DNA from: Eledone cirrhosa
Taxonomy: Eukaryota
Length of the DNA stretch: 64,000 nt
Assembly: GCA_964016885.1 (NCBI GenBank)
Contig: OZ024741.1
Span: forward strand, 331,514,001 to 331,578,000
Reading direction: 5' to 3'
Shown piece after piece: positions 9,940 to 59,888 of the stretch. Below the pieces are notes generated by a model. It made no database searches. It was not told the DNA's origin and worked only from the letters and a program-made list of their open reading frames with translations. Numbering within the stretch: position 1 is the stretch's first letter; each line of letters opens with the position of its first letter. The translations under genes were made by a program, and so were the position numbers.

Positions 9940-10562
9940 ATCTATTTAAATATGTATACAGCTATGGTACGACCACACTTGGAATTCGCATCATCAGTCT
10001 GGAACCCCTATCTTGCTCAGAACATTGACCTCCTGGAAACTGTTCAGAGACGTGCAACCAAGCGCATACCCTCCATCAGACACCTACCATACTCTGAACG
10101 CCTTGCTTCCCTGGGCATGGATTCATTGAAGCTCCAATGTCTGGCAATGGACTTGGTAAACACCCACAAAGTTATTAACCATCTTGCCAACAACAACCCT
10201 GAGCACCTTTTTGATCTCCATATGTCTAACACACGTGGACATGCCTACAAAATCAGAAAACAGCACAGCTCCCATGACTTTCTGAAATATTTTTTCACGC
10301 TCAGAGTTGTTGAAGCATGGAACAAACTGCCTGCGTCAGTTGTTAGCTGTCAAGATACTGCATCCTTTAAAACCCTCATGCTTCCCAAAATTCACCAAAA
10401 CTACACCTGATGTACCCCTTCCATACACATGCACACATGTGTATATCATGACTCATGCACTGTTCATTTTCCTGACGTTTGTACATTACCCTATGTACTA
10501 TACATACACTTTTTGATGAGTTGTAGTGCACCTGAGCACTGTACACAATATTTCATTATTAT
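9940..10562 (+). mobile_element. CR1-clade LINE 3' fragment (ORF 9952-10410 plus 3'UTR)
   Basis: VRPHLEFASSVWNPY..LETVQRRATK, TRGH, FFTLRVVEAWNKLP; ends in (ATT)n. Confidence 0.9.
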
Positions 10563-10898: not shown

Positions 10899-10928
<30 letters not shown>

Positions 10929-10929
<1 letters not shown>

Positions 10930-11115
10930 ACAAAGGAATTGTGGTAAGGAACTAGATGGACCATAACGCACCAGAGTACTCAATACTTAGGGTAGTAGAG
11001 TGGGAAATAGGAAAAAGTATGACCCCGATGGCAGAGCTCAATCCATTTCGATGGCTATTTCTGGAAATAGCCATCGAAACGGCTTGAGCTCTGCCGTCGG
11101 GGTCATACTTTTTCC

Positions 11116-11118
<3 letters not shown>
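10929..11118 (-). mobile_element. Fold-back element family B (palindrome centred on hammerhead stem II plus tail), copy 1
   Basis: Palindrome 11007-11118; arm reads GAA-ACGGC TTGAGCTCT GCCGT-C-GGGGTC; tail 10929-11006; TA flanks; copies at 18231 and 34272. Confidence 0.75.
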
Positions 11119-11146
<28 letters not shown>

Positions 11147-12814: not shown

Positions 12815-13197
12815 TGTATAAACGTTTGTATTTGTAAAGCCAAAACAATGCAGGTATGGACATAGAATATAAATACAAATGCAAAAGATATTGTTGACAA
12901 TTAGTCTTTTACCTTAAATTTATGTAAATGTCCTTAATTTTCGAGATAATATCTCTTCTTCAGAGGGAAGTAAAGCGGTTAAACCAGCGTTCTAAATAGC
13001 TGACTTGGCAAGCTATTTAGAACGCTGGTTTAACCGCTTTACTTCCCTCCGAAGAAGAGATATTATCTCGAAAATTAAGGACATTTAAATAAATTTAAGG
13101 TAAAAGACTAATTGTCAACAATATCTTTTGCATTTGCATTTATATTCTATGTCCATACCTGCATTGTTTTGGCTTTACAAATACAAATGTTTATACA
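12815..13197. mobile_element. Near-perfect ~187-bp-arm palindrome, family C, with a hammerhead in each arm
   Basis: Arms 12815-13001 and 13011-13197 with a 9-nt spacer; TA flanks. Confidence 0.85.
12932..12966 (-). ncRNA. Minimal type I hammerhead ribozyme
   Basis: CCT-CTGAAGA-A-GAGAT ATT ATCTC-GAA-AATT-A-AGG; palindromic stem III; the mirror copy at 13046-13080 has CCGAAGA. Confidence 0.75.
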
Positions 13198-18230: not shown

Positions 18231-18432
18231 AGGAAGGAATTGTGGTAAGGAACCAGATGGACCATAACGCACCAAAGTACTCAATACTTAGTGTAGTAGA
18301 GTGGGTAATAGGAAAAGGTAAGACCCCGACGGCAGAGCGCAAGCCGTTTCGACGGCTATTTCTGACAGCTATTTCTAGTCCAGAAATAGCCGTCGAAACG
18401 GCTTGAGCTCTGCCGTCGGGGTCATACCTTTT

Positions 18433-18436
<4 letters not shown>
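18231..18436 (-). mobile_element. Fold-back element family B, copy 2
   Basis: Homologous to 10929-11118; palindrome 18308-18436. Confidence 0.8.
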
Positions 18437-27304: not shown

Positions 27305-27520
27305 AAAAGGTAAACAGAAATAACAACACAATCAGTACAGTATATGGAAGGGATATATTAGGTTAACGCTTGATATAGCAGGAAGAGGGTCTTAACGTTT
27401 CAGACGCTAGTCTTTCATCAGAAGAAAGAATGAGAAATATAATAGGTTGAGGGGACGGGCGGGATGGAATTGGAAAAAAATGTCTTTAGATAAAAGGTCC
27501 ATTCATGTTGACATCTCTTG
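27305..27520 (-). mobile_element. Hammerhead element family F, copy 1
   Basis: Reverse-complement homolog of 31578-31798. Confidence 0.85.
27390..27425 (-). ncRNA. Minimal type I hammerhead ribozyme
   Basis: TCTT-CTGATGA-A-AGAC TAGC GTCT-GAA-ACGT-T-AAGA. Confidence 0.85.
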
Positions 27521-31577: not shown

Positions 31578-31798
31578 TAAGAGATGTCAACATGAATGGA
31601 CCTGTTATTTTTATCTAAAGACATTTTTTCCAATTCCATCCCGCCCATTCCCTCAATCTATCTTATTTCTCATTCTTTCTTCTGATGAAGGACTAACGTC
31701 CGAAACGTTAAGACCCTCTTCCTGCTATATCAAGCGTTAACCTAATATATACTTTCTATATATTGTGGTGATTGTGTTGTTATTTCTGTTTACCTTTT
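31578..31798 (+). mobile_element. Hammerhead element family F, copy 2
   Basis: Homolog of 27305-27520; ends ..TTTACCTTTT into TA; isolated 3' tip also at 47580-47608. Confidence 0.85.
31678..31713 (+). ncRNA. Minimal type I hammerhead ribozyme
   Basis: TCTT-CTGATGA-A-GGAC TAAC GTCC-GAA-ACGT-T-AAGA; stem II covaries with the copy at 27390. Confidence 0.85.
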
Positions 31799-31903: not shown

Positions 31904-31991
31904 CGTATCTGATGAGATATCGAAAAAGAGTCTAGGCTCCGCCACTTTGATTGTACCGTGAGCTGATTGATTTCGAACCAATTGTAATATG
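31904..31991 (+). ncRNA. Degenerate hammerhead with enlarged stem II (family G, element ~31877-32166)
   Basis: CGTAT-CTGATGA-GATATCGA..TTGATTTC-GAA-(C)CAATTGT-A-ATATG. Confidence 0.5.
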
Positions 31992-34271: not shown

Positions 34272-34437
34272 AACGAAGGAGGTGTGGTAAGGAACCAGAT
34301 GGACCATAACGCACCAGAGTACTCAATACATAGGGTAGTAGAGTGGGTACTAGGAAAATGTTTGACCCCGACAGCAGAGCTCAAGCCGTTTCGACGGCTA
34401 TTTCAGTCTAGAAATAGCCGTCGGAGTCAAACATTTT

Positions 34438-34441
<4 letters not shown>
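34272..34441 (-). mobile_element. Fold-back element family B, copy 3
   Basis: Homologous to 10929-11118; one arm has a deletion between GCCGTC direct repeats. Confidence 0.8.
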
Positions 34442-46998: not shown

Positions 46999-47450
46999 TG
47001 TGTGTGTGAGTGTGTGAATTATTTATTCTTTATGATTAACATTCATATAAAAAAAGAATTATATGTCTTAGAGAAGGGCCTCAAATTTCATATAGCTTAG
47101 AGCCTCATCAGGTGAAAGGCCAGCCCTGCACAAGATACCTGCAGCTAATGTGAATTCAGTTGTACAGTATTTTATCTCTCCACAGTAAATTTTTCACTTC
47201 TACAAATTTGAAATATTTTTCTCTGAGGCTAAAAGGGTTCATTGTGAAGAGGTGTGCATTTACAGAGTTTGTTTGACTATAAAAATATTGTTATTGTTAC
47301 AGTGTATGTATTTTCAGAGTTAATGGAAGTGAAAGGCTTATTTCAAACGTATTCAAAATGGAGGCATATTATCTTATATAGAAATAATTTGAGTGTACTT
47401 GAAATAACAACTCCCATTGCCAAACATTGAATTCAAAGGTTGTTTGTGGA

Positions 47451-57331: not shown

Positions 57332-57726
57332 ATATATAGTAAAACCTACTCCAGCCAGTAGGCATCTCTAACAAAATACACCCAGTCCCACCACCACCAC
57401 CCCCACCCCATCCACACCACCCCGTTCTATGTAAAGTTATGTTGGTGCCGCGCCATCGAGGCCGAAACAAATGAGATCGTGTAGGTGTCACGACAAAAAA
57501 ACACACAGTCCACGCTGTAATGTGGCCGTGTAGGCAACACGGTAAAAACCTCCCAGACCCACACTGTAAATGTGGTTGGTGTTAGGAAGGGCATCCAACT
57601 GTAGAAAACCTGCCAGACAGTCCTATGCGAGCAAGACAATCACTCTTGCCTCAAGTGGGACTACCCCCGTCCAAACCCATGCAAGCGTGGAACACGGACG
57701 TTAAACGTTGATGATGATGATGATGA

Positions 57727-57792
<66 letters not shown>

Positions 57793-59260: not shown

Positions 59261-59360
59261 TATATCTATCTACTTATCTATCTATATCTATCTATCTCTC
59301 TATATATGTATGCACAAATATATATATACAAATATATATATATACATATATATATATATA

Positions 59361-59888
59361 TCATCATCATCATCATCGTTTAACGTCCATATTCCACGCT
59401 TGCATGGGTTTGGACGGGAATTTTCCCACTTGAGGCAAGAGTAGTTGTCTTGCTCGCATAGGACTGTCTGGCGGGTTTTCTATGGCTGGATGCCCTTCCT
59501 AACACCAACCACATTTACAGTGTGGGTCTGGGAGGTTTTTACCGTGTTACCTACACGGCCACATTACAGCGTGGACTGTGTGTTTTTTGTCGTGACACCT
59601 ACACGACCTCATTTATTTCGGACTGGATGTTGTGGTACCAACATAACTTTACATCGAAAGGGGTGGTGTGGATGGGGTGGGGGTAGTGGGACGGGGGGGT
59701 ATTTTGTTAAGAGGTGCCTACTGACTGTAGGTTTCACTTTGTACTTAGGCAAGGCGGGCCTTCTGTATTACTGTGTAGCGCCAAAAATCTCGGTCCAGTG
59801 ACATTGTCTTGGAGAGGTGTAAGTGTGTGAGGTCGGAATTTATCAAGTCGTCCCAGGTTTTTCTGGGTCTGCCTACTCCGTGGCTACC

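Follow-up and report, generated by a model that had tools for sequence, protein, structure and literature searches.

Short head-to-head palindromes in (TA)n runs of the Eledone cirrhosa genome raise the question of how a sequence that carries only half of a hammerhead ribozyme comes to be joined to its own inverted copy, and what fixes the point at which the two copies meet. The window analyzed here, a stretch of 64,000 nucleotides on contig C2 (the genome searched amounts to 3.0 Gb), contains three copies of an element of 170-205 bp, each between (TA)n runs and each built to the same plan: an extension of 79 bp on one side only, then an arm, a short center that varies, and the inverted arm. 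A sequence-only reading of the locus had recognized the palindrome, and the structure proved real; the centers of the three copies are all different, and all lie between inverted GCTATTTC and GAAATAGCC. Folded as DNA, copy 1 reaches -62.7 kcal/mol (z = -14.65), with 0 of 200 shuffles equally good. Throughout, the G of GAAAC is numbered +1, which puts the predicted cut after C+23 and the A of AGTCC at -17. The copies and their parts are as follows.

10916 to 10928, no strand assigned: left (TA)n target flank of copy 1, read from the sequence
10929-11117: copy 1, a head-to-head palindrome in (TA)n
10929 to 11065, minus strand: tail-bearing arm of copy 1, from loop II (-15) through the 3' half hammerhead and the 3' strand of stem I into the tail; a putative cDNA primed at the distal start
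10929 to 11007, minus strand: tail of copy 1, 79 bp, spanning the gap between two inferred reverse-transcription starts
11064 to 11117, plus strand: tail-less arm of copy 1, from -11 to TTCCTA; a putative cDNA primed at the proximal start
11065 to 11103, plus strand: 3' half hammerhead of copy 1, its sequence mapped on the native fold
11065-11075, plus strand: 3' strand of stem II, copy 1
11076-11079, plus strand: GAAA, copy 1
11079-11097, plus strand: stem III, copy 1
after C11098, plus strand: predicted cut, copy 1
11099-11103, plus strand: 3' strand of stem I, copy 1
11118 to 11139, no strand assigned: right (TA)n target flank of copy 1, read from the sequence
18234-18436, no strand assigned: copy 2, with the tailed arm to -13 (ending at 18364) and the tail-less arm from -18 (18376)
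34272-34441, no strand assigned: copy 3, with the tailed arm to -11 (ending at 34404) and the tail-less arm from -17 (34405)

The two arms of copy 1 have a 2-nt microhomology in common (11064-11065), and the center of copy 2 is an 11-nt filler (18365-18375) that repeats arm sequence. The longer arm of copy 2 is the tail-less one; in copy 3 also, the tail-less arm begins further 5' than the tailed arm. Each arm had been described as a clean 3' half hammerhead, which holds for four of the six window arms, in which this half is intact, but not for the left arm of copy 1, where base changes break stem III, or for the right (tail-less) arm of copy 3, where a loss of 23 nt between two GCCGTC repeats has removed GAAA and stem III. 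The 5' half was rightly said to be missing: no complete hammerhead core was found in the three window copies, which are without the 5' core and the 5' strand of stem I. The axis of the palindrome had been equated with stem II, and it does lie in the stem II/loop II region, but the hairpin in the window is the product of inversion and not native stem II (CGGCTATTT/AAATAGCCG), with which it has 9 bp in common. The one-sided 79-bp extension, which the sequence-only reading had not described as such, is the tail of a Penelope-like element (PLE) and is the key to the mechanism; in autonomous copies (L055, L096, L097, and L116), it continues into the start of the open reading frame (ORF). No ORF piece was found within the window by tblastn. 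Elsewhere in the window, positions 9965-10410 hold a degraded 3' end, which we take to resemble that of a CR1/L2-type LINE, and positions 57496-57783 and 59301-59588 hold inverted 288-bp copies of a common short repeat, 1.5 kb apart, which end in (ATG)n/(TA)n and have the look of independent SINE-type insertions.

What has been inserted head-to-head in (TA)n, in minimal form, is the end module of a Hydra-type PLE; this module is the pLTR of an element encoding a reverse transcriptase (RT) plus a GIY-YIG endonuclease. An origin from a PLE pLTR had been proposed for the unit, and the unit was indeed found in the sense orientation beside an RT/GIY-YIG ORF; among 30 loci fetched by means of the parent RT, several carry it after the 3' UTR or before the start of the ORF. 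The parent ORF has the motifs YRDDG, DKT, RWR, and CxCX5C (SDKT, RWR/KWR, and CNCPERSTC were read in L055, L092, and L095, with RWR rather than RWK), translations of L095 and L097 show the RT followed by a C-terminal GIY-YIG domain in one short ORF (<3 kb), and there are 485 homologues of about 700 aa. Hydra members lack the CCHH motif of the endonuclease; in the copies read, the endonuclease is interrupted by stops. These motifs fit the published description of the Hydra clade (PMC8557442), a placement made from the motifs and from likeness to published Hydra proteins as judged by eye; Pfam gave zero matches for three ORF pieces. The flanks of the copies agree with the (TA)n insertion of Hydra members, and the insertions have the unit typical of EN+ PLEs: a pLTR, an adjacent inverted 5'-truncated copy, and a one-sided tail. 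A Neptune-like parent was rejected, the motifs fitting the Hydra type. Nor is the feature a non-LTR retrozyme, that is, a head-to-tail tandem with full hammerheads, since the copies are dispersed and head-to-head and hold half ribozymes, or a MITE/palindromic master element, in view of the one-sided tail and of 68 distinct centers in 77. An endonuclease piece in L032 was likewise rejected as the parent's and assigned to a different PLE family, one that has a canonical hammerhead of its own. At L032, a second abundant PLE family (L058-L087; 1522 candidates with the seed L032:1101-1500, minus strand) is joined head-to-head to an arm of the palindrome-forming family; in the second family, the linker is of the CxC type, the 3' UTR is long and contains tandem repeats, and the hammerhead is minimal and canonical.

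Exact patterns matched 38,884 arms, 11,274 short palindromes (center of at most 30 nt), and 503 non-inverted copies having the upstream half across the genome, and the reversed-pattern controls gave 0 matches; the patterns are of unequal strictness, and the ratio of palindromes to non-inverted copies is therefore rough. It is in the non-inverted, or native, copies that the full three-way hammerhead fold is present. Their order is ACCCC, TTGANAA, G, the 5' strand of stem II, a 33-nt loop closed by native stem II, the 3' strand of stem II, GAAA, stem III, GTC, and GGGGT, which together form a complete hammerhead fold of type I whose core is U3:A8; self-cleavage is predicted. It had been anticipated that non-inverted copies would carry stem I plus a core upstream of the hairpin, and they do, but the core is TTGANAA and not CTGANGA. 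TTGANAA was present in 54 of 58 native copies (44 TTGAAAA, 6 TTGATAA, 3 TTGAGAA, and 1 TTGACAA, the variable position being N7) and TTGAAGA in 2 of the 58, proportions that are biased because 30 of the 58 loci were fetched by a pattern fixing TTGAAAA. In one subfamily, the C3/A8 type, these two core positions are unpaired in the copies seen. CTGANGA followed by GACGGCTATTTC, sought as an exact pattern, gave 0 matches genome-wide; CTGANGA at most 30 nt from an arm gave 10. As a candidate native core, CTGAAGAGTCC was rejected, the 17 GAAGAGTCC loci being junctions and the long copies showing TTGAAAA. An Rfam search at E <= 1 returned 278 matches, and no hammerhead was among the 150 matches listed, which were to miRNA models of the simple-repeat kind; to the palindrome itself, mir-1329 was assigned with a weak score.

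The fold was also examined by thermodynamic prediction and by comparison of copies. For L183, the unconstrained minimum-free-energy (MFE) structure is the three-way junction (z = -2.81); across the five native copies folded, the hammerhead was the MFE structure in one, the centroid in two more, and neither in two, with z-scores from -0.87 to -2.81. For a sister family with TAGCTG as the 3' strand, a compensatory CAGCTA was predicted upstream, and a search found 31 places; of the 30 that were read, about 19 are sister copies with CAGCTAGAT/ATCTAGCTG, 2 show canonical CTGAGGA, and the rest are CpG changes of the main family. When 24 chosen natural copies were set on the native fold, 90.6% of cells were paired, with 82-93% per helix, compared with 27-44% in slid controls. 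Both-sided changes were seen at three stem II pairs and at the 3:8 pair (UA in 18 copies, CG in 2, UG in 1, and unpaired in 3) and none in stem III; the rows are related and come from two related families, so that this covariation counts few events. At 31682-31705 (+) and 27398-27421 (-), the window additionally holds two copies of a separate repeat whose minimal hammerhead core is canonical (CTGATGA...GAAAC) and which probably represents the end of some other PLE family, and there are further CTGANGA...GAAA matches at 47086-47111 (-), 12939-12963 (-), and 31909-31925 (+); five such matches compare with 2.75 expected by chance, and some may be chance.

The ends of the arms were mapped in a sample consisting of 95 of the first 100 anchor matches, their neighbors, and 264 kb made up of the window and its continuation, with two of the sampled loci coming from the short-palindrome search; an arm end is the maximum of an alignment and includes microhomology. 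Among 164 arms, 14 read through, 4 end at -49 to -24, 106 at -23 to -9, 16 at -8 to 0, 12 at +1 to +22, 4 at +23 to +25, and 8 beyond, ends above 0 being under-sampled. The inversion points, for which a random distribution had been named as the unfavorable outcome, are not random: they pile up in loop II and at the predicted cut. Ends per base fall from 7.07 to 0.15 across -23/-24, a 46-fold drop, and this sharp edge falls on a conserved TTTAGT/TTCAGT in loop II. The edge is a band from -23 to -9, with peaks at -13, -16, and -9, rather than a single base, and for that reason resection or microhomology has to be invoked. In the sister family, TTAGT stands at the same distance although the rest of the loop differs, and 6 of 8 truncated sister arms, judged by eye, end at -16/-17. 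The motif TCAGT/TTAGT resembles the invertebrate initiator. A TATA-like box at about -30 is not conserved in the sister family, and a cap-derived G was sought at the edge and not found, the unshared base that follows the edge being A in 17, C in 4, G in 4, and T in 3 of 28 cases. Penelope transcription has been described as beginning inside the upstream pLTR (PMC2377424), and TATA and Inr-like motifs have been noted in pLTRs of the rotifer Adineta vaga (PMC3846280). A depth step and loose ends at the loop II edge appear in three contig sets, which represent one sample, may be the assembly's own, and are given no weight as support.

Some individual loci show further features at this edge. At L197 and L201 (contig C1 near 4,947,000 and 5,226,749), 12-16 T stand directly before AGTCC at the 5' edge of the arm, which suggests A-tailing or RT stuttering at a template end. 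L244 (C1 15,465,563-15,466,028) consists of three tail-less arms in tandem, with (TA)n between them and each starting from -16. At L287, L292, L297, L307, and L312, the edge AGTC runs directly into the sequence after the cut site, suggesting either a deletion or a jump between two RNA ends over GTC microhomology.

Insertions carry one tail. With matches in the TA part removed, 69 head-to-head pair rows included 0 with two tails and 0 with two short arms: 59 pair a tailed with a short arm by strict ends, 9 pair a tailed arm with one whose alignment end is trimmed (one of these rows repeats L195), and 1 pairs a short arm with a tail that has an inner deletion. Tail-less arms end mostly at +43 (57 matches). 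The 20 long pairs, whose arms are 111-3271 bp apart, comprise 14 of tail plus short, 4 that are unclear, and 2 with two tails (L116, a partial tandem, and L302). Early stops, that is, ends above 0, were found in 19 of 80 tailed arms and 5 of 84 tail-less arms, an excess that is expected if the distal cDNA meets the proximal cDNA on the same RNA. Among 77 centers, 68 are distinct, which points to de novo origin of the insertions, and two recur four times each.

A second end lies at the predicted ribozyme cut. Four tailed arms of the arm sample begin at +23/+24, and a genome-wide search for tailed arms in which a purine precedes +24 found 711 matches. By eye, the first 100 of these include 31 true junctions, 7 of them supplied by the C3/A8 subfamily, and 16 of the 31 are symmetric: the partner arm also ends at the cut site, with 1-5 filler bases between. 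A script applied to 30 fetched +24 loci found 13 junctions, 9 of which are symmetric. At +21, the one control position, there were 151 matches, and 30 of these yielded 11 junctions and 0 symmetric ones. ORF pieces follow arms that end at -17/-18 or +24 in L054, L055, L268, and L301; in L268, the piece lies between two arms, both beginning at +24. That a minority of arms stops exactly at the predicted cut suggests that the ribozyme cuts in living cells, and the junction sequences suggest that its 3' product may be copied.

In twin priming of L1 elements, both target strands prime on the RNA, which leads to 5' inversion. The Eledone insertions are, in our judgment, best explained overall by twin priming, with a probability of roughly 0.65: two cDNAs would each be copied as far as a fixed 5' end of the RNA and then be joined. 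A protein, probably a dimer, would open both target strands; one strand would be primed at a proximal start (after TTCCTA, +43) and the other at a distal one (the end of the tail, about +123). The RNA would begin in loop II, probably at an initiator-type transcription start, and on such an RNA, synthesis of the two cDNAs would reach the end after about 60 and 140 nt; a few untemplated bases would be added, and end-joining by microhomology would give the palindrome. On ribozyme-cut RNA, the cDNAs would run off at +24, and on read-through RNA, or after a template jump, they would continue and give rise to long copies with inverted pLTRs. The scheme departs from that of L1, where the second priming can occur at any site and there is hardly any overlap between the two segments, in that both starts are fixed and both cDNAs would usually reach the end of the RNA. 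Our confidence in twin priming is higher than that in the transcription-start step. Against the explanation as a whole stand the width of the loop II edge, the missing cap-derived base, the unconserved TATA-like box, the mixed folding results for native copies, the share of the C3/A8 subfamily among the +24 junctions, the two long pairs with two tails, and the in vitro findings for PAc given below.

A bolder proposal, which we put forward tentatively and do not expect to hold in full, places the PLE transcription start inside loop II of the element's own hammerhead and adds a strong-stop transfer across a 41-nt repeat. Retroviral minus strong-stop DNA is a short cDNA that runs off the 5' end of the RNA. 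The RNA 5' end of the PLE, with half a ribozyme, would be unable to cut itself, and the 3' pLTR would be whole and be cut after GUC. The two RNA ends would then have the 41-nt repeat (-17 to +23) in common, much as retroviral RNA has its R region. By jumping across the repeat, short cDNAs that had run off could go on to copy the full element, and the palindromes, present by thousands, would be strong-stop cDNA pairs that failed to jump; unlike in the retroviral process, neither a tRNA primer nor an integrase would be involved. No jump across the repeat was observed; a jump of this kind leaves no scar.

The rival to twin priming that the sequence-only reading had put forward is fold-back: a single cDNA would stall at stem II, snap back, and serve as its own template. 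Such a course would suit the position of the axis, which is in the stem/loop II region in most copies, as well as the existence of native stem II and the fact that both arms of a pair usually carry the same subfamily letters, and PLE palindromes have been ascribed to self-priming before (PMC3846280). The stem base (-2 to +1), however, is the end point of only 6 of 164 arms, against 91 that run through the full stem II strand and end within loop II (-11 to -23), and the full native loop that fold-back on stem II would leave was found in 0 of 77 centers. Copying from a tail-less strand cannot yield a tail, and a tailed strand can serve as template only for what it contains; yet in the 59 strict pairs, the tail-less arm extends further 5' in 29, the tailed arm in 20, and neither in 10, and 5 have a tailed arm that ends within the tail and has no sequence in common with its partner. 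A single folded strand can make neither a longer tail-less arm nor arms that do not overlap. In addition, the arms of L233 and L235 mix clearly different subfamilies, and the tail/no-tail rule also applies to long pairs up to 3.3 kb. The arm-length test largely refutes the fold-back model, and we regard it as very unlikely. We consider it highly improbable that the short palindromes are long inverted insertions whose centers were deleted later or that they arose by MITE/SINE-like spread of a few masters. Palindromes are unstable, deletions between GCCGTC repeats are common, and the two recurrent centers would suit a few masters; some very short arms may indeed reflect later deletion at the palindrome center. 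Such deletion does not explain the loop II edge, since random loss of centers would not give the 46-fold drop across -23/-24; symmetric junctions, moreover, occur at +24 yet not at +21, and several autonomous subfamilies each have many different centers.

An explanation that keeps twin priming takes the edge to be an RT block or another RNA-processing end instead of a transcription start. The block could be an element protein on loop II or a contact between loop II and stem I; the processing end could come from an event at a TTAG site like a 3' splice site. We think this unlikely, though it would accommodate an edge that is a band and is without a cap-derived base; TTTAG/TTCAG reads as a splice acceptor, a Penelope intron ends beside its hammerhead (PMC4209133), and L183 has an inner hairpin whose 3' strand covers -20 to -14. 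Against it, a shared upstream exon was not seen in truncated arms, and many retain part of TTTAG; the sister family keeps TTAGT and the edge at the same place but has no inner hairpin there; and non-native filler lies between arms that both reach -17, as it does at +24 junctions.

Several published systems share parts of this picture, as described in the sections consulted of the papers cited. The Hydra clade of C-terminal EN+ PLEs (Craig et al. 2021, PMC8557442), which includes Hydra-1_Obim, is like the Eledone family in having DKT, an RWK-like motif, and CxCX5C, a C-terminal GIY-YIG, an ORF of about 700 aa, (TA)n targets, a hammerhead near the 3' end, an inverted 5'-truncated copy, and a one-sided tail. 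Hydra-1_Obim is a different family, with a canonical CTGAAGA core, a short loop II, and "no pLTR" (PMC8557442), and the Eledone family differs in its U3:A8 core, its 33-nt loop II, its tail of 79 bp as opposed to 30-40 bp, and its stump palindromes, which outnumber long copies. For the Poseidon element PAc in vitro (Frangieh et al. 2024, PMC11167929), two internal RT starts bound the tail, both strands are cleaved in AT-rich DNA, and a dimer is predicted; in the sections consulted, that study found no strand to differ from the other in its start site and the cut site to be free of RNA-seq reads, and it leaves inverted copies unexplained. The Eledone family, in contrast, would use one start per strand in each insertion, and some of its copies begin at the cut site. 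Penelope of A. vaga (Arkhipova et al. 2013, PMC3846280) has head-to-head palindromes at the inverted junction, with an optional tail; these were ascribed to self-priming on an antisense template, whereas the Eledone arm statistics favor two sense-templated cDNAs. Cercyon PLEs of Schistosoma mansoni have U3-A8 minimal hammerheads, with opposite-strand pairs 100-700 bp apart (Cervera and De la Pena 2014, PMC4209133), but these are without stem III, whereas in the Eledone hammerhead stem III measures 5 bp and stem II 9 bp, and loop II is long. Published work (PMC8557442, PMC11167929, PMC4209133, and PMC3846280) already covers inverted copies and tails, palindromes at junctions, self-priming, the pair of RT starts, and U3-A8, and further PLE literature was consulted (PMC2377424, PMC13282606, and bioRxiv 10.64898/2026.07.22.740005); the literature searched, which included few subscription papers and did not extend to the PLE reviews of 2005-2006, yielded no statement of a one-tail-per-insertion rule, of PLE twin priming, or of insertion ends at the hammerhead cut.

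The making of inverted PLE pLTRs and tails, and the role of the hammerhead, are called open in the parts of the PLE literature consulted. The Eledone genome offers thousands of natural reaction products that follow three rules: each insertion carries a single tail, arms stop sharply in loop II, and a further set of ends marks the cut site. These rules argue against the printed self-priming model and tie the two RT starts known in vitro to the two target strands, and the junctions would constitute genomic evidence for germ-line cutting by a U3:A8 hammerhead, a ribozyme that CUGANGA descriptors overlook. For annotation, the stumps are easily mislabeled as MITEs, SINEs, or miRNA hairpins. If true, the strong-stop scheme would give the PLE hammerhead a job and would bring pLTRs, tails, and inverted copies under one account.
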